From the IMG/VR virus record IMGVR_UViG_2671180724_000008: a stretch of 64,000 bases of DNA; one strand, given 5' to 3'. The notes below the pieces were generated by a model that was given only the letters and a program-made list of their open reading frames with translations, was not told the origin of the DNA and did no database searches. Positions 1,980-55,503 of the stretch are shown piece by piece. Source of the stretch: a virus. Taxonomy: Duplodnaviria; Heunggongvirae; Uroviricota; Caudoviricetes. A program made the translations under genes and the position numbers. The first letter of the stretch is position 1, and every line of letters starts with the position of its first letter.

Positions 1980-2714
1980 ATGAAAAAGTTGAAAAGTTTA
2001 GAAATCCCTGGGACTGGTTATAAATTCTTTATGGACAACGCGGAGTGTGCACCTAACGCGTTGGAAAAAATACAAAGTCTTATCAACAGCCTTACTGAAG
2101 AAGCGAAAGAACTGAAGAGCGAGGCGACAAAGGACAATACAGCTAAAATCCAATGCTTAAATCTCGTTTCTTATTGTTTATATCAAGTGTCCAAAACACT
2201 GATTAAAGGCAATATCTATTACGACGATGAAGACACCTCGACACCTGAAGAAAAAGATAGCGATGAAGAACTCTATGAAGATATCTCTACTAGTGCGGGT
2301 CACGCTGCCTTCGATGCTATGGGTAAATCGTCAGGCATCAGATCATTTGTTGAACAGAACAATTCGACAATAATGATTGAGTACTGTGAACAAACAAGCT
2401 CCAAGGCCATACATGTTCTTCACGATGTTGCTGCAGGGGTTCGCTGTGAGGCTGAAGCGGTCAGAAAAGATGTATTTGGTGCAGACAGTAATACCGTGAA
2501 AGCGTTCATCAACAGTGCTCTGCTAAATTCTTACTCAAACCTTATCGTCAATGCGGCACTATGCGCAAATTCTGGTGAAGAACACATTGTCATAACCGAA
2601 ACCAAATATGAGCATCAACAGTCACCAACCATAGAAGAGGTAACTGCATTGGCTATCAAACAGGCGAGTGAAATTAGTGATGAAATTCTCTCTCTGCTAA
2701 ACAAAACTAAGTAA
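1980..2714 (+). CDS. Hypothetical protein (low GC, acidic)
   Basis: 244-aa ORF, AT-rich codon usage distinct from neighbours; no recognisable motif. Confidence 0.55.
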   Translation: MKKLKSLEIPGTGYKFFMDNAECAPNALEKIQSLINSLTEEAKELKSEATKDNTAKIQCLNLVSYCLYQVSKTLIKGNIYYDDEDTSTPEEKDSDEELYEDISTSAGHAAFDAMGKSSGIRSFVEQNNSTIMIEYCEQTSSKAIHVLHDVAAGVRCEAEAVRKDVFGADSNTVKAFINSALLNSYSNLIVNAALCANSGEEHIVITETKYEHQQSPTIEEVTALAIKQASEISDEILSLLNKTK

Positions 2715-2819
2715 AACATTGATAATGGCGGTCACAATTTGATTCTTTTCTATAAGAATCCGTTGATCGCCACTACTCCCCTTCCATACCTGCAATCACA
2801 TCCTTAAATATCAATAGGT

Positions 2820-3620
2820 TATAGTTGTTTACACAAACAAGAAAACAACTGAATAACAGATCAACGAAACGTCAACGCTTTCACCCGATTTGGTCTAAAA
2901 AATTGACGTTTTCACACATCACTTCTTATACCCGTAATCCTACGCAGCAGACAGCTCCACAGCGTCCAATTTTCACCACAGACGACTCAACACACTACCA
3001 ACAAAAACACATGCTCAAAATCGCTCCCGTTGCGTTACACAACCATATAAACAACTTATTTTCAGGTATAACAAAACAACTAAATAACACATATGCCATT
3101 ACCCAAAACAACCAACCTCTTTATGGCAGGCTACCGAAAAGACCCACCTCTTCTTCCCAGGCTACCGGACAACCAACCTAACTTTCACAGGCAATCCGAA
3201 AACATTCACACGCGCGATACCCACGACACGCCATTACCCAAACAGCGAAGAAACACCTGAACCACTGAAACCCCAACGAAGTCTGTAACCGCAAGGATTC
3301 TCTCAATCCCAAAAGACACGAAACAGAACAATCACGGGAAACGCCATTACCCAATACACGAATAACTACAAAAGCCCTTCACACACTCAGACAAACAACT
3401 CAAACACAATAACGAAAGCAATCGCCCACCTGCCATTACTCCATATACGGAGAAGAACAATCACCAAAACGACGAGAACACCCCATAGAAGAACCACCGC
3501 AAAACGAACGAAACCACATACACCGACAGAGAAAACAACACACCTAATCCACCAACAGAAATAGTCGCCGTATAGAACGTTCTGGTAGGAGTGAGCATTA
3601 ACGCCTATAGAGAGGTTGAG
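2820..3620. repeat. Strand-asymmetric C+A-rich non-coding stretch with four iteron-like direct repeats GCCATTAC(C/T)C(A)A (3095, 3229, 3342, 3432)
   Basis: Top strand almost devoid of G/T over about 800 bp; repeats read directly; ORFs here are low-complexity compositional artefacts. Confidence 0.6.
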
Positions 3621-3773
3621 ACAGATAAAACACGAAGAAAACACAACATGCATAGCGAAGAAGCCAGGTATGTATAAGTGGGGAGGGAAGGAGGGGGGTC
3701 GCCTCCTTTTTCGTATTTATTCAACTCCTGATTTTATCCCCCGTAACACCCCTGCGGTCAGCCTTCGGTCCAT

Positions 3774-3912
3774 ACAGGGAAAAGGCTGCATCCCGCTACA
3801 GAAACGGCTGGGTTGCCTTCGGGGGACGGCTGGAGGTTTTCAGGGAAACGGTCGAGTTGCCTGTGTGGGTTTCGGGAAAAGGCTCGATGCCGGTTCAGGA
3901 ACGGTGGCGTAC
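3774..3912. repeat. Cluster of five direct repeats with core GGGAAA(A/C)GG (cagggaaaaggctgcatccc, cagaaacggctgggttgcc, cagggaaacggtcgagttgcc, cgggaaaaggctcgatgcc, caggaacggtggcgtacc)
   Basis: Read directly; 19-21 bp units spaced 25-35 bp apart in G-rich non-coding DNA. Confidence 0.6.
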
Positions 3913-4220
3913 CGGTATAGCGTGAGAGAGAGTTGCGGCTGCCCACCTGTAATGTGCGGGAAGAAGAGAGGCGCTCACGTGCAGGCGAACTTACTTCCCG
4001 CTGGATTCCCTCTGAATGCCCAGCTACAGCGTAATTGTGCCAGACAGCCAGCGGGTCACAATCGATTTTAGTAGGTTTTCGGGTAGAGGATTATTCTGCC
4101 CACCAGCCACTTTCGGCCACTAAATCAGAATAATGTAAAAAGTGTACTCGGTACTAAACCTGAAAACTCACTGCCAAAACCACATTCACCGGAATAAAAT
4201 CCTTTTTCGCCTATGTGTTA

Positions 4221-4257
4221 TTACGATAATAACACCAATAAGAAAACACGTTGTTTA
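4221..4257 (+). promoter_or_regulatory. Early promoter (-10 gataat) with operator agaaaacacgttgttta
   Basis: Motif family member immediately upstream of CDS 4269. Confidence 0.5.
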
Positions 4258-4268
4258 AGGATTGCTTT

Positions 4269-4598
4269 ATGTTTGCACATATCGACATCAACCAAATCAA
4301 GAAATTAACTCAAAAAGAGTTTGATCAGTTTTATGAGTTAGAAGGTTGGTCTTCCACTCTGATCAATTCGCGGTGGGTGCTTGAGCTGATGACTCGTGAT
4401 GACGCACCTGCTTTGATGATTTGCGACATGGGTGAAGATGCTGACTTTATGGATATGAGCGAATTTTGTGTGGACACATACAACCGCAGCCAGAAGTACT
4501 ACTTCACATGCGATAGCGAGAATGACGTGATTTCTAAGGTCTATCTTCACCTTGTCCAGCATTGGGACGTTCAGGAGTTTCTTGAAGTATTCGCGTAA
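4269..4598 (+). CDS. Hypothetical early protein
   Basis: ORF; ATG 4269 chosen over the upstream TTG that lies inside the operator. Confidence 0.6.
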   Translation: MFAHIDINQIKKLTQKEFDQFYELEGWSSTLINSRWVLELMTRDDAPALMICDMGEDADFMDMSEFCVDTYNRSQKYYFTCDSENDVISKVYLHLVQHWDVQEFLEVFA

Positions 4599-4706
4599 TC
4601 CCAACCAAAGCCAGCAATGCTGGCTTAACTTCATCTGTAGCCGCAGGGAAGAACCTGCATATCGCTCATGCGCCTGATCAATATGCTTTGTAGCCGTTTT
4701 CTTACT

Positions 4707-4743
4707 GGTATTATTTACGCCATTGAGAAAACAAGTTGTTTAC
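4707..4743 (+). promoter_or_regulatory. Early promoter (-10 tattat) with operator gagaaaacaagttgtttac
   Basis: Motif family member upstream of CDS 4753. Confidence 0.5.
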
Positions 4744-4752
4744 GGAGTTGTG

Positions 4753-5064
4753 ATGAAAAAATCATTGGTTCTTGGTCTGGACAAAGACCAGAAGAGAAAA
4801 GAGAAGCCTGCGCTGGTTGCTCAATTAACTTTGCTGGACATCGTTGCCAATGGAACCTCTATTCGTCTGTTCCGTGAAACAGCGGTGTCTTTCGATAAAA
4901 ACACCTTTACTCGTTATGTAATGAATGTTCGTCGCCAGCGTGGAAAAGGCTGGGTGGCATTTCAAAGAATGTGGCCGGAACATCAGCTCGAACTGGCTTT
5001 GATGGAAGTTAACCGCGTGGCCCAGCAAGAGATTCAGAGAGCATCAGTGATGGCAATAGCCTGA
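4753..5064 (+). CDS. Hypothetical early protein (basic)
   Basis: ORF with acggag RBS 5 nt upstream of ATG 4753. Confidence 0.6.
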   Translation: MKKSLVLGLDKDQKRKEKPALVAQLTLLDIVANGTSIRLFRETAVSFDKNTFTRYVMNVRRQRGKGWVAFQRMWPEHQLELALMEVNRVAQQEIQRASVMAIA

Positions 5065-5099
5065 TAATGTGCAAGTGGTAATTAGTCGACAGTACGACA

Positions 5100-5126
5100 G
5101 CCCCGCCATCCTTACGGGGCTTTTTT
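5100..5126 (+). terminator. Rho-independent terminator
   Basis: gccccg...cggggc hairpin plus tttttt. Confidence 0.65.
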
Positions 5127-5190
5127 GTATTGTAAGTACATACTTACGGCTATAAAATAGAAAAATAACCAAGACACTACGGAGAGTGAA

Positions 5191-5586
5191 ATGACCGTTA
5201 AACGCGAAAAACTGACAGTTGATGTTTACTATGCCTCTGAAACCGCCGAAGGTAAGAATGTGGCAAAAATCACCGTTGTTACGTACAACACCGAAACTGG
5301 TGCCGAAGTACAGGCCAGTACGATCGTGCGTAAAGGTGATGCCTCCGGCGGCGAGTACGCGACTCAATACCAGTCCATTCTCGATGCAACTGACCCGCTG
5401 CTGCTGAAAATCGAGAACTACTTCCGCCAGGTTGATGAAGAGGTGTTTGAAACCATGATGAGTATGGTTAATTCCGTATTCACCTCCAGCCTGAACACCA
5501 GCACCACCTGGATTGGCCAGTATGGTCTGCGCATTACCTCCGGCATTCCTGCTGACACCTTAATCCCTGAAAGCGTATTCGCTTAA
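5191..5586 (+). CDS. Hypothetical protein
   Basis: 131-aa ORF between two terminators; TAAGTA-type palindrome gtaagtacatacttac at 5132-5147 upstream. Confidence 0.6.
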   Translation: MTVKREKLTVDVYYASETAEGKNVAKITVVTYNTETGAEVQASTIVRKGDASGGEYATQYQSILDATDPLLLKIENYFRQVDEEVFETMMSMVNSVFTSSLNTSTTWIGQYGLRITSGIPADTLIPESVFA

Positions 5587-5596
5587 TCCTCTTTAA

Positions 5597-5622
5597 ATGG
5601 CGCGTAAACCGCGCCATTTTCT
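5597..5622 (+). terminator. Rho-independent terminator
   Basis: atggcgcg...cgcgccat hairpin plus T-run. Confidence 0.6.
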
Positions 5623-5632
5623 TATGCCCGAT

Positions 5633-5697
5633 AACAATTTGTTTTCTGCCTTATCTGCACTGCGATAATTACAACAACAAGAAAACAACATGTTTAC
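5633..5697 (+). promoter_or_regulatory. Early promoter with paired operators (aacaatttgttttc 5633-5646; gaaaacaacatgtttac 5681-5697) flanking -10 gataat
   Basis: Same architecture as 1557-1622. Confidence 0.55.
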
Positions 5698-5714
5698 GCA
5701 GTGAGGATATGCTC

Positions 5715-5996
5715 ATGACTGATTTCACCATTACCACCAAAGCACAAAATGTATTCCTCGAATCATGGCTGGACTTGCCGGAAACAGAACAGCAAGAAAT
5801 GGATCATGTGGAATATGACGAGCAGGTAAGCACGCGATTCTTCCACTTTGAGGGATGCGTTTACGACATTGCCGACTTCATGCGAGATGACCGCTTCCCT
5901 GAATGGCACGCAAGCTATCCACTAAACGCCTTTGCCATGCTGATGATCCGTGTGGATGATTCAGGGGATACCATCGACATCGGTCTGCTCCACTGA
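5715..5996 (+). CDS. Hypothetical early protein
   Basis: ORF; gtgagga RBS 7 nt upstream of ATG 5715. Confidence 0.6.
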   Translation: MTDFTITTKAQNVFLESWLDLPETEQQEMDHVEYDEQVSTRFFHFEGCVYDIADFMRDDRFPEWHASYPLNAFAMLMIRVDDSGDTIDIGLLH

Positions 5997-6126
5997 AGAA
6001 TAAGGTCACCAATGCTGGTGGCCTTAAATGACCATCCTGCTTCCCTCAGGCTAAAAACACCAACCTCTTACCTCCAGGCAACCGACAAACCCACCTGTTC
6101 CCGTCCGGCTACCGCAACTTTCCACT

Positions 6127-6180
6127 TTGACGCCTTATTCGTACAACGATAATTAACACAAACAAGAAAACAATTTGTTA
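6127..6180 (+). promoter_or_regulatory. Sigma70-like promoter (ttgacg -35, about 16-17 bp spacer, AT-rich -10) with operator agaaaacaatttgtta
   Basis: Read directly; preceded by CAGGC(T)A...CCG...CCAACC repeats at 6040-6110. Confidence 0.55.
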
Positions 6181-6200
6181 TTTACGATAAGGAATTAATC

Positions 6201-6683
6201 ATGAATTTTATCGCTACTGTAAACGCACCCGCACATGGCAATATCGCTGTAACGTTCTCTGACATTGAAAAACGAGTACTTGGTGCATGGCGCGACAATG
6301 AGACGGTAGAACTGTCAGCACAAGAAAAATGCATTATTGCACGCGACATCATTGGCAATCGTCGTTACTCGCGGGTATTTGAGAAAGCGTATGTGGTAAA
6401 TTCTGGATTCGGAACGTTCGTCTTTCCGGTGCGCTCCGGGCGATTCTGCCAGTCCAAGCTGATTGAGTTCGCTACGCAGATTTCTTTCTGGATTAAAACT
6501 CAATCGTCGTTCAAATTTTCCGACGATGAAGCAGTATCGCAGGGGATGCGGATCGCCAACAATGCGATTAAATGCAAAAACATTACGTATACCGCTGGCG
6601 TTGACACATGGAAACTGTTTTGCGCTAACTTTATGCTGAATGTATACGCAAGCAACCGCATCCACATCCTTGATGGCGTGTAA
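6201..6683 (+). CDS. Hypothetical protein
   Basis: 160-aa ORF; no recognisable motif. Confidence 0.6.
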   Translation: MNFIATVNAPAHGNIAVTFSDIEKRVLGAWRDNETVELSAQEKCIIARDIIGNRRYSRVFEKAYVVNSGFGTFVFPVRSGRFCQSKLIEFATQISFWIKTQSSFKFSDDEAVSQGMRIANNAIKCKNITYTAGVDTWKLFCANFMLNVYASNRIHILDGV

Positions 6684-6691
6684 CTGAGAAG

Positions 6692-6715
6692 AGGGCCAGA
6701 AACGGCCCTTTATCT
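6692..6715 (+). terminator. Rho-independent terminator
   Basis: agggcc...ggccct hairpin plus tttatct. Confidence 0.5.
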
Positions 6716-6731
6716 ATAGCCACCAGCTGCC

Positions 6732-6819
6732 GCAGGGAAATTTTCAGAAACGGCGAGGAAAGCATTCATGAGCCGACGGGAAACGGCCAGGATTTTTTCG
6801 GGAAACGGCTGCATTCGCC
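6732..6819. repeat. Second cluster of GGGAAA(A/C)GG repeats (cagggaaattttcagaaacggcgagg, cgggaaacggccagg, cgggaaacggctgcattcgcc)
   Basis: Same core as the 3774-3912 cluster, in non-coding DNA. Confidence 0.55.
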
Positions 6820-7269
6820 TTTATGTAGAAAAAACATCGGGAAGCTGGTGGAATCCAACCAGCGGTTGTCGGACAGGTGAGCGGGGAAAATTATGATGAC
6901 TTTCGTCGCCTGAGACATCCAGATTTCTTTCGTAGCATAATCACATACGTGATTAAGTGGTGTGATTATGTGAAAAATCACGCGCACATAATACGCGAGC
7001 GGATACGGAACAAAACAAAATGCCGATCCGCGCCGACAAATAAACGCGGATCATAAAGCAAGACTAAAAGCCAATGATTAACCATACTCTATAGCGCAAT
7101 ATAACGCGTTTTAAGCGCGTTAATGTGTTAAGTAATGGGTATGTACTGGTAAGGATATAAAAGCGCGTCTATGGCGTTATTTTGGCGCTTATTTTTATGT
7201 TGTTGGAGTGAGTTAAAGACAATAAAAAACGCGCTAATGATGGCGCGTTATGGTGGGAGTATTGGAAAC

Positions 7270-7294
7270 GAAAAAAGCGCCCATAGTGGGCGCT
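7270..7294 (-). terminator. Terminator of the minus-strand block (probably bidirectional)
   Basis: gcgccc atagt gggcgc hairpin flanked by A-run on plus and T-run on minus; same hairpin recurs inverted at 7777-7795. Confidence 0.6.
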
Positions 7295-7299
7295 CGATT

Positions 7300-7530
7300 T
7301 TATTTGTGTAAACTGATTTTAAATCCCATTTCTACAAACGCTTTTAACATTAAAAATATATCAGCGTCGTTCACGTCTGCTTTTTTTCGCTCCTGGTCGC
7401 TCAATAAGTCAATTTTGCGCGTCGTTTCATCTATAAGCTCGACTGCGCGCCCAGCGTAACCAGCGATCCCAGCGATGCGATTAACATAATATTCATTATG
7501 GACGTTAACGCCAGCGATAAGAACAAACAT
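7300..7530 (-). CDS. Hypothetical small protein
   Basis: 76-aa ORF in AT-rich minus-strand block. Confidence 0.45.
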   Translation of the reverse strand: MFVLIAGVNVHNEYYVNRIAGIAGYAGRAVELIDETTRKIDLLSDQERKKADVNDADIFLMLKAFVEMGFKISLHK

Positions 7531-9047: not shown

Positions 9048-9650
9048 TCAAAAAGGCAAAATTCGTTCAACCCAATCGAACAAAACAACTATTTTTCTAC
9101 CGTTCTCGACACGTAGTGTAACCTGACAAGCATCTGCGCCTGCTGACACCCCCTCAATTTCACGGCCATCCGCCATGTACACCCTTATAGATTTGTTTGC
9201 TTTGTAGGCTTGGTTGCAAATTGCAAAAAAATCGCGGCGTGATGGCCGATTATCGACATAATCAGGGTGAACTGTTAGTCGACCTTTGAAATCGTGAGCG
9301 ATACTGTCAACCACACCTGATTCAATTGTACTAATGCGTTCAAGTGGGAGCCTTATACGATTTTCTTTGTCAAAAGGGGCTGGGCAAAGGTCAACTTTGT
9401 TACGAGATGGCATGAGGCCATAAACGTACATGCAAAACGCCTGGCCATCTTCGAGAGTGACCCTTACAGGAATTTGTTCTCTGCGCCAGAACATCAGTAG
9501 TTTTTCAACGTTAGTGTAATCTCGCGGCCAGAGTTCAGCTTGGATACCGTAGGTAATATCTTTGGTTGTCATGTCATCACAGAGTTGTTGGCAGAATGTC
9601 GATGTCACCAGAATTGCTGGTGAACACCCTGAACGCTTTTGTGTCTCCAT
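9048..9650 (-). CDS. Hypothetical protein (start uncertain; alternative ATG at 9572)
   Basis: 200-aa ORF; overlaps the upstream lipoprotein ORF by 74 nt if the 9650 start is used. Confidence 0.5.
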   Translation of the reverse strand: METQKRSGCSPAILVTSTFCQQLCDDMTTKDITYGIQAELWPRDYTNVEKLLMFWRREQIPVRVTLEDGQAFCMYVYGLMPSRNKVDLCPAPFDKENRIRLPLERISTIESGVVDSIAHDFKGRLTVHPDYVDNRPSRRDFFAICNQAYKANKSIRVYMADGREIEGVSAGADACQVTLRVENGRKIVVLFDWVERILPF

Positions 9651-11972: not shown

Positions 11973-11990
11973 GTGGATTGTAGCAATAAA

Positions 11991-12671
11991 ATGGATGTAA
12001 AAATCACGATTTTGCAGGTTGATGTTGCCAACCTTCGCCCGAATACCTGGAACACCAATTCGGTTGGTGCGCAGAATTTTGAAAAACTGAAAGGTTCTAT
12101 CGAAAAATTGGGCTTTTTTAAGCCAATTTTGGCTCGTGAACTTGAAGATGGATTTTTTGAAATCCTCGGCGGCGAACATCGCTGGCGTGCTGCTATTGAG
12201 CAAGGAATTTCAACGGTTCCGGTGCTTTCTGTGGGCAAAATTAGCGATGTCGTAGCTAAACAGATGTCACTGGTGGACAACGAGCGATACGGTGAAGACG
12301 ACCAAATCGCATTGCAACGCTTCATTGAAGAAATTCAGTCAGAACTTGACTATCAACTGTCTGAAATCGCCCCGTATGACGACGAAATCTCGATGGTTTT
12401 AGCAAAAGAGGCGGCAATCGACCTTGAAGCACTGGAGGCGTTGTCTCGTGGTAGTGATGAGCCTGTCGATACCGACAAACGAGAGAAAACCGAACGTGTG
12501 GGTGCGGAACATCAGACCATGCGCTTCAAAGTAACTTTCGATGCGTCAGATCGTGTTGCAGAAACCATAAAAAACATCATCAAAGAGCAGGCTATTAACA
12601 CCGGTAATGAAATGGAGAACGCTGGTGAGGCTCTGGTGTGGCTGGTCGACTACTACAAGGAGCGTATGTAA
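11991..12671 (+). CDS. ParB-like nuclease domain protein 1
   Basis: ParB N-terminal domain signature ILGGEHRWRAA; acidic C-terminus; alternative GTG start at 11973. Confidence 0.7.
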   Translation: MDVKITILQVDVANLRPNTWNTNSVGAQNFEKLKGSIEKLGFFKPILARELEDGFFEILGGEHRWRAAIEQGISTVPVLSVGKISDVVAKQMSLVDNERYGEDDQIALQRFIEEIQSELDYQLSEIAPYDDEISMVLAKEAAIDLEALEALSRGSDEPVDTDKREKTERVGAEHQTMRFKVTFDASDRVAETIKNIIKEQAINTGNEMENAGEALVWLVDYYKERM

Positions 12672-13339
12672 TGACCAAAAAGTTTGAAATCGTATATCGC
12701 GACCCGGCAGATCTTATTCCCTATGAGATGAATGCCAAAAAGCATGATGAACAGCAGATCCGAGATCTAGCCGCAGCCATTAAAAAGCGCGGATTTGACC
12801 AGCCAATTACGGTCGATAAGAACGACGTAATTATTACTGGCCACGGCCGCCGTGAGGCTGCAATTTTTGCTGGACTTGAGCGCGTACCGGTTATTGTTCG
12901 CGATGATCTCAGTGATGACGAGGTTCGTGCGAAGCGCCTTGAAGATAACCGACTTGCCAGCATTGATTACGATGCAATTAAGCTACAGAAAGAGCTTGAG
13001 TCGCTTGTTCTGGACGATATCGAGGTTTTCGGCTTTGAAGAGCGTGAGTTGAATGTTCTCGTTGGCAGTATGACAGAAGAAATGGACACCGACTCGCTAG
13101 TTATCGATCTTGGCGAAGAAACTAAACGACAGAAGGATGAACACACCGAGATCAGTCGTGAAGTTGCAGCGGAAGAAGTACGTGTTGTCGACGTATTGGG
13201 CTTTAAAACGCTCCCTGCTGGCTCTGCCATTGTTGTTGGTGATTTGCTTGCCCACATGGAAGAAATGACGGGAGAAAGCGGGGTAGACGCATTTGTGGCA
13301 TATGCGGAGAAGATCTCTTCCGGGGAGATGGCTGCATGA
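12671..13339 (+). CDS. ParB-like nuclease domain protein 2
   Basis: ITGHGRREAA motif; aaggag RBS; ATG overlaps upstream stop (taATG). Confidence 0.7.
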   Translation: MTKKFEIVYRDPADLIPYEMNAKKHDEQQIRDLAAAIKKRGFDQPITVDKNDVIITGHGRREAAIFAGLERVPVIVRDDLSDDEVRAKRLEDNRLASIDYDAIKLQKELESLVLDDIEVFGFEERELNVLVGSMTEEMDTDSLVIDLGEETKRQKDEHTEISREVAAEEVRVVDVLGFKTLPAGSAIVVGDLLAHMEEMTGESGVDAFVAYAEKISSGEMAA

Positions 13340-14001
13340 GCAAATACATCATCAACGTATCGTTTCAGACACGCGTAAATAAAACCACGCGCACGTTGGA
13401 AATCGCTGAGTCGTTCGGGCTTGGCCTGGACGAAAAAGAGTGGACGCTTTACGACAATCTGGAGCTGGAAGTGAAGCAGGGCGATGTGGTGTACATCACC
13501 GGCCAATCCGGTTCCGGCAAATCCGTTGTGCTGCGCGAGTTGCAACGACAGATGAAGGATGAAGGGCTGTCTGTAGCCTCCATCGATGATTTTACCTTCG
13601 ATAATGAGGTTAACGTCATCGATCAGTTGGGCAAAACGACCAGTGATGCGCTTGGGTTGTTATCTATGGCTGGTCTGAACGATGCATATCTGTTTGTTCG
13701 CAAGCCTTCTGAAATGTCAGACGGCCAGAAATATCGTCTCAAGATTGCCAAACTGATTGAGTCAGGCGCTAAAGTGTGGGCTGCTGACGAGTTCGGCGCT
13801 GTTCTCGACCGTGTAACCGCTCAGGTTGTGGCGTCTAACCTCCAGCGTGCCGCTCGAAAGGTTGGTGCGACGGTAATGGTGGCGACGACTCACGAAGACC
13901 TGAAGAACGCGCTGCGCCCGGATATGCAGATCACCAAGCACTACAAAGAACGCGTGAAGGTGGAATATCACAATGGTAGTCACGATGAGGTCCATTCATG
14001 A
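13336..14001 (+). CDS. Small ABC-type/P-loop ATPase
   Basis: Walker A GQSGSGKS, signature-like SDGQKYRLKIA, Walker B VWAADEFG; ATGA overlap with upstream gene. Confidence 0.65.
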   Translation: MSKYIINVSFQTRVNKTTRTLEIAESFGLGLDEKEWTLYDNLELEVKQGDVVYITGQSGSGKSVVLRELQRQMKDEGLSVASIDDFTFDNEVNVIDQLGKTTSDALGLLSMAGLNDAYLFVRKPSEMSDGQKYRLKIAKLIESGAKVWAADEFGAVLDRVTAQVVASNLQRAARKVGATVMVATTHEDLKNALRPDMQITKHYKERVKVEYHNGSHDEVHS

Positions 14002-55255: not shown

Positions 55256-55331
55256 TGATGGTGTAGCTCAGCGGTAGAGCAGTTGGCTGTTAACCAACTG
55301 GTCGGTGGTTCGAATCCACCCACCATCGCCA
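55256..55331 (+). tRNA. tRNA-Asn (anticodon GTT), phage-type
   Basis: Manual cloverleaf fold: acceptor GATGGTG/CACCATC, anticodon loop CTGTTAA, T-loop GGTTCGAATCC, encoded CCA; differs from E. coli tRNA-Asn. Confidence 0.85.
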
Positions 55332-55336
55332 ATTTA

Positions 55337-55423
55337 GGGGAGTTAGTCCGTAGAGGTAGCGGTGTAGACTGTAAATCTACTGTCATTGCGACTCGGGTGG
55401 TTCGACTCCATCACTCCCCACCA
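55337..55423 (+). tRNA. tRNA-Tyr (anticodon GTA) with long variable arm
   Basis: Acceptor GGGGAGT/ACTCCCC, anticodon loop CTGTAAA, T-loop GGTTCGACTCC, encoded CCA. Confidence 0.8.
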
Positions 55424-55427
55424 AATT

Positions 55428-55503
55428 GCCGGTTTAGCTCAGTTGGTAGAGCGCCTGCCTTGTAAGCAGGATGTCAGCGGTTCGTGTCCGTTAACCGGCA
55501 CCA
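55428..55503 (+). tRNA. tRNA-Thr (anticodon TGT)
   Basis: Acceptor GCCGGTT/AACCGGC, anticodon loop CTTGTAA, T-loop GGTTCGTGTCC, encoded CCA. Confidence 0.8.

Follow-up and report, generated by a model that had tools for sequence, protein, structure and literature searches.

In phage P1 the plasmid and lytic origins are separate, with a lytic replicon that consists of the C1-controlled promoter P53, kilA-repL and oriL. The lytic origin of P1 depends on transcription from a promoter that the prophage repressor keeps off, and oriL itself lies inside the repL coding sequence. The region considered here, positions 2700-4260 of a 64,000-nucleotide stretch of viral DNA (IMG/VR virus record IMGVR_UViG_2671180724_000008, the whole of which is termed the window), resembles P1 in that it is carried by a phage-plasmid with a separate plasmid origin (a lytic origin being what is proposed here) and with operator-like sites scattered over the genome. 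It differs in having no adjacent initiator gene, in a predicted transcript that is non-coding and A+C-rich and in the iteron-like repeats that lie downstream. The region is put forward, as possible rather than probable, to be a cis-acting module of the lytic phase that is silent in lysogeny, either a lytic origin that is activated or primed by transcription or a control region.

In this proposal a repressor-gated sigma-70 promoter at 2903-2932 would drive a rightward untranslated RNA of ~750-770 nt, which would be unable to fold on itself because it is almost only A and C. The transcript would reach a polypurine G-rich block and hairpin at 3680-3712, with six iteron-like, putative protein-binding repeats in 22-bp phase ~60 bp beyond the hairpin, and a second repeat cluster 2.9 kb downstream would be an auxiliary site. 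The outcome would be a lytic origin or control region of the phage that is distinct from the RepA origin and is activated or primed by a non-coding transcript, modelled on P1 P53/oriL, the T7 and T4 origins, ColE1 RNA II and the long non-coding RNAs (lncRNAs) of herpesvirus oriLyt. Three steps of this scheme are inferred: firing of the promoter, an effect of the RNA or of the act of transcribing it on the repeats, and initiation of replication at this site.

Origins that are primed or activated by a transcript include those of ColE1 (RNA II), T4 (the R-loops of oriF and oriG), T7 (the primary origin) and mitochondria (LSP/CSBII), and HCMV RNA4.9 is an example of a herpesvirus oriLyt lncRNA (PMC7185721). 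The likeness here is a candidate promoter, several hundred non-coding nucleotides and a G-rich purine block where an RNA-DNA hybrid could persist, within an element that codes for RNase HI and a UvsW-type R-loop helicase. However, RNA II is highly structured whereas the RNA of the tract is predicted to be free of structure, and R-loop-prone transcripts are G-rich throughout whereas this one would be C-rich until its last 30 nt. With the iterons of theta replicons (P1 incC/incA, F ori2, lambda ori, P4 ori/crr, SPP1 oriL/oriR) the region shares direct repeats of ~15 bp, a ~22-bp phase and clusters that are kilobases apart, but its array has no neighbouring rep gene, no DnaA box and no obvious AT-rich unwinding element, nor is it the RepA iteron sequence.

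The A+C-rich tract and its conservation

The features of the region, and the related repeats further downstream, are as follows.

Positions 2728-2775, + strand: hairpin or inverted repeat at the boundary, GGCGGTCA ... TGATCGCC enclosing an inner stem, its centre TTTCTATAAG invariant; the conserved module begins here
Positions 2838-2913, + strand: operator-like leader, near-invariant in 26 representatives
Positions 2903-2932, + strand: candidate sigma-70 promoter, termed P_AC, with -35 TTGACG (2903-2908), an 18-nt spacer and -10 TATACC (2927-2932)
Positions 2940-3660, + strand: A+C-rich tract, 72-75% A+C, median C/G 2.7, non-coding, its RNA predicted to be near structure-free
Positions 3048-3082, no strand assigned: palindromic operator-like copy TAAACAAnnTTNTTTTC and half-site ACAAAACAAC, inside the start of the tract
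Positions 3095-3444, + strand: four direct copies of (M)YGCCATTACYCMA, starting at 3095, 3230, 3343 and 3432
Positions 3105-3200, + strand: three tandem units of 30-31 nt, ACCMACCTCTT-N7-CAGGCTACCGAAA
Positions 3680-3712, + strand: homopurine G-rich block GGGGAGGGAAGGAGGGGGG (3680-3698) within a hairpin with a T-rich tail, terminator-like in this lineage by terminator scan
Positions 3771-3911, + strand: six iteron-like units with core C(A/G)GGRAAMGGCTGG, start-to-start distances 22, 22, 22, 31 and 22
Positions 6053-6118, + strand: second array of 30-31-nt units, just upstream of the promoter of a 160-aa gene, colinear with the first at an offset of ~2.95 kb
Positions 6735-6815, + strand: second iteron-like cluster, two clear units 22 bp apart and two degenerate ones, downstream of the terminator of gene 6201-6683

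Megablast of window positions 2700-4260 gave 96.5% identity to Escherichia phage Cyrano (plasmid pLF82 of E. coli LF82), and judged by this match the window is an SSU5-type phage-plasmid, bearing out an initial annotation of the window that had considered it a phage-plasmid. The region is present at 90-97% identity in ~190 plasmids of 100-125 kb from E. coli, E. albertii and Shigella, and sensitive BLASTN recovers it, at 65-74% identity, from Salmonella phage SSU5 and from phage-plasmids of Klebsiella, Enterobacter, Citrobacter, Cronobacter and Raoultella. A total of 838 PLSDB records have it, as do 246 of 5,426 complete E. coli genomes, each time on a plasmid (0 chromosomal). Conservation by slice was followed in 26 non-redundant relatives and layout in 52 IMG/VR loci with enough flank, whilst whole-genome motif counts were made on the complete Cyrano genome of 108 kb.

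No credible gene had been seen between 2715 and 4250, and the comparison with relatives agrees. Indels in the tract are of 1, 8, 15, 21 and 29 nt, of which those of 1, 8 and 29 nt shift the frame; coding on either strand was rejected on these frameshifts and as no reading frame is kept among relatives. The only recurrent open reading frame (ORF), 3461-3598 on the minus strand, is in many lineages interrupted by a frameshift or an internal stop, or lacks its start or its stop, and was likewise rejected. PGAP leaves the region without annotation in most records and in others gives conflicting small 'hypothetical proteins'. On this comparison the region is a gene-free module of 1.5 kb that has been kept in SSU5-type phage-plasmids, with the tract sitting at the border between upstream cargo genes, which vary by lineage, and the conserved module.

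The base composition of 2940-3560 is 40.7% A, 33.0% C, 12.1% G and 14.2% T, and the richest 500-nt stretch reaches 74% A+C against a window mean of 50.4% (standard deviation (SD) 3.5), which is 6.8 SD above the mean. GC skew in the tract falls to -0.52, on a + strand where G exceeds C genome-wide except in the tract, so that the strand asymmetry reported in the initial annotation is real; the excess of A and C that it described also stood, whereas its 'almost no G or T' did not, with G and T each at ~12-17%. Across the 26 relatives every 100-nt slice of the tract is 60-78% A+C, with an identity that is patchy, 80-91% over 3420-3540 and ~50% with indels in other blocks. In 47 of the 52 loci the tract was found, at a distance of 3.1-4.7 kb on the upstream side of the conserved 160-aa gene.

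L121, which of the relatives found diverges most, has a 160-aa protein that is 50% identical and a tract with zero BLASTN similarity, yet ~900 nt of it are at 59-70% A+C. Its layout is as in the window, with a hairpin that has the centre TTTCTATAAG, a promoter, an A+C tract with CTGCCATCTYCCA motifs, a G-rich end and CGGGAAACGG repeats. As the A+C richness is kept in the relatives, and as L121 keeps the layout without similarity of the tract, it follows from these comparisons that strand-specific composition, as well as the short motifs, is under selection. A<->C exchanges account for 24% of the differences within the tract and for 12% within the G-rich array, a contrast that is confounded by composition and was not used as evidence. 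Primase sites (GTT on the minus strand) are not enriched, the z-score for AAC on the + strand being at most 1.7.

It had been suggested that such a region might be a long structured regulatory RNA, but for the tract and the G-rich segment alike, folding of either strand was no more favourable than that of shuffled sequence (z -1.6, +1.1, +0.6 and +0.1), and alifold windows yielded only small hairpins as consensus folds. The + strand of the tract folds at -74 kcal/mol for 551 nt (-0.13 kcal/mol per nt) against -137 kcal/mol for the other strand, so the + strand RNA would be, by this folding model, nearly structure-free. A search of the whole window against Rfam 15 gave only tRNAs above the gathering threshold, with nothing below E 0.4 in 2600-7400, and no described family accommodates the tract. 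A type III toxin-antitoxin antitoxin RNA was also rejected. ToxI-like RNAs are tandem repeats of 34-45 nt that have a terminator and then a ToxN/AbiQ-type toxin gene behind them, whereas the units here are of 30-31 nt and only three in number, with no toxin-family neighbour by Pfam.

The module is silent in lysogens, as CYRAN_103, the Cyrano gene that covers window positions 2825-3181, does not rise above the detection floor in any of the ten RNA-seq samples of LF82 lysogens, be it in LB, medium or macrophages (PMC9928086, S1 table).

The leader, the repeats and the end of the tract

The boundary repeat has inner arms that are specific to the lineage (GATTCTT/AAGAATC, GGAT/GTCC, CAACCTCTC/GAGAGGTTG) around a constant, asymmetric centre, and in two relatives (L101 and L103) homology stops precisely at this centre. 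It may be a candidate site for site-specific recombination or exchange of cargo, and its left arm, GGCGGTCACAA, may loosely resemble the arm of a Xer site. The leader that follows contains AAGAAAACAA (2841-2850), ATCAACG and GTCAACG sites and an inverted repeat, GAAACGTCAA (2866-2875) / TTGACGTTTTC (2903-2913), the right arm of which overlaps the -35 hexamer of P_AC. Five CGTTGAY sites can be read from the sequence between 2711 and 2910. The start predicted for P_AC, ~2939-2941, coincides with the onset of A+C richness, and the hexamers and spacing of TTGAC(G/A)-18 nt-TATA(C/T)C are constant in all 106 leader copies matched by pattern, L121 included, with an A-tract directly 5' of the -35 in most lineages. 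The sequence of the spacer is variable among lineages, and one divergent leader (L108) has TACACC as its -10. P_AC is a promoter-like element that may be gated by a repressor.

Further copies of an operator-like palindrome lie within the 230-bp leader. This family, (A/T)AGAAAACAAnnTTGTTTA, has 17 copies in the window against 1.35 expected, among them those at 1557, 1605, 4240, 4725, 5631, 5679, 6164, 15279, 15304, 45383, 48313 and 60401. The copies stand in fixed orientation 10-35 nt upstream of + strand start codons, that of terS among them, and ~10 nt past a GATAAT-like -10 hexamer, often with a further copy ~48 bp upstream. By analogy with the C1 operators of P1 the family looks like a genome-wide operator. 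A candidate for its regulation is a FljA-family protein, encoded at 9048-9647 on the minus strand, which would act on the operator motif (AAAACAAnnTTGTTT) rather than on flagellin. Over its full length this protein matches Pfam PF03614 ('repressor of phase-1 flagellin') at E 2e-84, and a sub-threshold Hfq/Sm-like match covers residues 145-187. The protein is expressed in LF82 lysogens and is kept even in the phage-plasmids of Klebsiella, a genus that is not known to be flagellated.

All of the repeat families that the initial annotation had listed exist and exceed chance. The four direct repeats in the tract, GCCATTAC, lie 135, 113 and 89 nt apart and have 8 copies in the window against 1.9 expected; other lineages have 3-7 copies of (M)YGCCATTACYCMA, with the variant CTGCCATCTYCCA in L121. 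The CCAACC-containing repeats that had been placed near 3120-3200 and 6040-6110 are the two arrays of 30-31-nt units (CCMACCTCTT..CAGGCTACCG), three tandem units in the first and two or three in the second, which align to each other at a score of 45 against 21 +/- 2 for shuffles. The length of this unit is also near an integral number of helical turns.

A G-rich repeat array had likewise been seen at 3774-3912, a segment that is 39% G; the array stood, but the count of five did not, there being six units in a 22-bp phase. As in protein-binding iteron arrays in general, the repeats are direct, about two helical turns apart and share a conserved core, and with two clusters present the description of them as iteron-like is upheld. 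GGGAAAMGG has three copies at 3777-3882, two at 6778-6808 and a single one elsewhere in the 64 kb, and in the complete Cyrano genome it is found only in the two clusters, on one strand. The core CGGGAAACGG is kept in all lineages, even in L121. The second cluster, expected at 6732-6819 and found at 6735-6815, is kept in the SSU5, Klebsiella and Cronobacter lineages, and every lineage has two clear units in it at a distance of 22 bp. Both repeat families are colinear at the two loci with the same offset of ~2.9 kb.

Between the tract and the G-rich array lies GGGGAGGGAAGGAGGGGGG, which is the longest homopurine run in the window and forms the 5' arm of the hairpin at the end of the tract. This hairpin is more stable on the + strand in nine of nine lineages (-9 to -20 against -3 to -13 kcal/mol), owing to G.U pairs. 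Its covariation was not significant, because arms of low-complexity purine and pyrimidine also pair when slid.

Weighing the explanations

The RepA origin lies elsewhere, with Cyrano repA at 60.6-61.7 kb and RepA together with its iterons spanning 60.1-62.4 kb, ~33 kb from the region. More than 20 CTCTCTATAGTGGATA iterons at 21-bp spacing, together with the DnaA-box-like TGTGGATAA, lie to both sides of the repA gene, and the repeats of the region (GGGAAAMGGCTGG) are unrelated to them in sequence. Variants with IS3-family deletions of the cargo region and tract persist as plasmids, and one plasmid has an IS1 inside the tract; because such variants exist, the tract is dispensable for plasmid maintenance. 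The element codes for RNase HI, a UvsW-type helicase, UvsY, a gp32-like single-strand binding protein (SSB), RecA, a primase and a helicase, and no lytic origin is annotated in it. A lytic origin or control region is ranked first because the conserved unit ends before the phased repeats and the plasmid can dispense with it, and because replication genes are encoded without an annotated lytic origin.

Several observations weigh against a lytic origin or control region here. In the macrophage samples the downstream small genes rise 10-40-fold with the tract still at the floor (PMC9928086, S1 table). The -10 of P_AC lacks the canonical final T, because of which a stricter automated promoter scan missed it. 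Rho would be expected to stop an untranslated RNA that is rich in C and poor in G short of the purine block, and an origin leaves the A+C richness and the roles of GCCATTAC and the 31-nt motif without explanation. No DnaA box (TTATCCACA, with up to one mismatch) was found in 2700-4300, genome-wide GC skew has no switch of the origin type, and there is no initiator gene next to the region, as the initial annotation had already observed of Rep. At the second locus both repeat families flank an ordinary protein gene, 6201-6683, an arrangement for which punctuation of transcription units is at least as good an account. The narrower claim that a ~770-nt RNA made only in the lytic phase has been selected for near-absence of G and U, be it as an 'oriLyt' origin transcript or as a decoy for Rho or a single-strand binder, is rather doubtful.

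It is possible, though rather unlikely, that the RNA acts in trans, as a structure-free non-coding RNA of ~770 nt with a 3' end protected by the hairpin, which would be a lytic decoy or sponge for a factor that binds single-stranded RNA. Rho, S1 or the 30S subunit, Hfq, a cold-shock protein or a phage protein would be the candidates, with GCCAUUACYC and the CCACCUCUU..CAGGCUACCG motifs as their sites. The conserved P_AC and a terminal hairpin that favours the + strand would be expected of such an RNA, as would a composition that outlasts sequence and so points to selection on the single strand. All motif families are direct and on the + strand, the fold is very weak compared to that of the other strand, and the three longest rut-like runs of the + strand are in the tract. 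CsrB/CsrC, Pseudomonas CrcZ and AgvB, a prophage anti-sRNA against GcvB, similarly carry repeated single-stranded motifs in a non-coding RNA, and C/A-rich sequence is a target of GcvB. However, the motifs that define these RNAs (GGA in loops, AAnAAnAA, GcvB pairing) are unenriched here, and the tract is much longer and silent in lysogens, with zero expression in their samples. Runs of Hfq ARN, Crc AAnAAnAA, CsrA GGA and ACAACA/GcvB-type C/A words were not enriched beyond composition, all z-scores lying within +/-2.2 of dinucleotide shuffles and none being positive beyond 1.8. Pairing with GcvB R1 had a mean duplex energy of -17.1 against -17.6 for dinucleotide shuffles of the tract, using a GcvB query that is identical to that of E. 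coli at 206 of 206 positions. The E. coli chromosome has neither similarity nor complementarity to the tract at E<=1, and in the window neither the anti-SD-like CCACCTCTT nor GCCATTAC was found to have a trans target.

An unlikely explanation is that the region is a Rho-dependent insulator, in which an oversized rut zone and an intrinsic terminator block read-through from the cargo into the early lytic genes, with rut modules around transcription units formed by the C-rich 31-mers of the + strand and by the G-rich repeats, whose minus strand is rich in C. As at rut sites and in long Rho-dependent leaders (lambda tR1; the mgtA, corA and rho leaders), the RNA would be C-rich, G-poor, untranslated and unstructured. 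C exceeds G over far more than the ~80 nt of a rut site, with a median C/G of 2.7 over the 620 nt of 2940-3560 and a minimum of 1.57, and when the whole + strand is scanned in 78-nt steps of sequence for C/G >= 2, the three longest runs that result all lie inside the tract, which is on paper an outstanding substrate for Rho loading. The fourth-longest such run is the second 31-mer array, between two genes, and the repeat families flank a transcription unit at both loci. The tract also sits exactly at the border of cargo and conserved module, and upstream of it the cargo gene CYRAN_102 is at ~57 units against 5, the floor, for the tract (PMC9928086, S1 table). Against an insulator, a promoter that is conserved in position and spacing and aimed into the tract would make no sense, the 700 nt are ~10 times what a rut site requires and Rho does not need the depletion of U. 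The tract differs from known rut regions in the same respects, being ~10 times longer, depleted in U as well and equipped with conserved motifs and a dedicated candidate promoter of its own. The specific motifs are kept, some even in L121, and a helical phasing of 22 and 31 bp suggests binding to double-stranded DNA.

That phasing would suit arrays of sites on double-stranded DNA, for partition (a centromere), packaging or recombination and multimer resolution at the boundary hairpin, with the tract as a spacer, a view that is quite improbable. The helically phased repeats in two clusters speak for it, as do the boundary repeat with its invariant, asymmetric centre at which lineage breakpoints fall and the integrase, ParA and two ParB_N proteins that the element encodes. 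Yet lysogens express neither the ParB_N genes nor the ATPase, plasmids without the region persist, the terminase genes are 12 kb off, and a spacer would not be expected to hold a strand-specific composition over deep divergence. The two ParB_N-domain proteins are encoded consecutively, with a P-loop ATPase, at 11973-14001 on the + strand, upstream of terS (15361). As these genes are silent in LF82 lysogens (PMC9928086, S1 table), they are probably related to the lytic phase or to packaging rather than being the plasmid partition system.

The plasmid origin suggested by the initial annotation, in the form of a RepA iteron origin (RepA/IncFIB-like) or an incompatibility or copy-control locus, has direct repeats ~22 bp apart in two clusters to recommend it but is extremely improbable, given that RepA has its own unrelated iterons 33 kb away, that there is no DnaA box and that plasmids in which the region is deleted persist.

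Surrounding features and significance

Two further features lie between the G-rich array and the small genes downstream.

Positions 4034-4063, minus strand: predicted sigma-70-like leftward promoter, TTGTGA-16-CACAAT, at an aligned position in 18 of 26 representatives
Positions 4091-4135, no strand assigned: inverted repeat ATTATTCTG/CAGAATAAT with a Chi site in its loop (4100-4107, minus strand)

The leftward promoter has no gene behind it in the lineage of the window, and SSU5-type lineages have an 80-aa minus-strand ORF at its place; it could feed antisense transcription into the repeats and tract. Chi (GCTGGTGG) occurs 15 times in the 64 kb against 1.2 expected, or ~1 per 4.3 kb. This density is close to that of the E. 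coli chromosome. Four Chi sites are in intergenic hairpins or loops around the small-gene cluster, at 4100-4107 (-), 6014-6021 (+), 6720-6727 (-) and 6844-6851 (+). Terminator-like hairpins on both strands are dense in 6980-7300, where convergent gene sets meet, with three copies of AAGCGCGTTAATG, and at 7224-7293 on the minus strand there is a weak, non-significant isrK-like match (19.9 bits, E 0.43).

Every protein encoded near the region belongs to a PHROG of unknown function. The variable cargo upstream includes part of a methionyl-tRNA synthetase gene (40-1473, + strand), which is annotated in Cyrano and PhiR41_1. At 55257-55500 on the + strand Rfam finds three tandem tRNA genes, apparently the three that are annotated in Cyrano (Asn, Thr, Ser). 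Large Klebsiella plasmids of 170-450 kb keep the first ~470 nt of the module, leader and start of the tract, truncated by insertion sequences (L013 6001-6481, L014 6001-6468) and adjoining DUF262/GmrSD and type I restriction-modification genes. These leader fragments, being IS-truncated remnants, were set aside as uninformative.

SSU5-type phage-plasmids are common in Enterobacteriaceae and carry resistance genes, while their lytic origin and the wiring of lysis and lysogeny are not described in the records and literature examined, where nothing was found on this region, on non-coding RNAs of SSU5/pHCM2 or on their lytic origins. The region looks like an undescribed control or replication region of the lytic phase. 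A non-coding module of 1.5 kb that keeps an extreme strand composition past the point of sequence recognition points to unusual selection. If it is a lytic origin, it would offer a handle on induction and on bursts of copy number. If instead it produces a functional structure-free RNA, it would widen the RNA repertoire of phages and would be a natural test of Rho and single-strand binders on long transcripts of A and C only. Either reading of a lytic RNA poor in G and U would, if true, give a class of phage long non-coding RNA that has no described counterpart.

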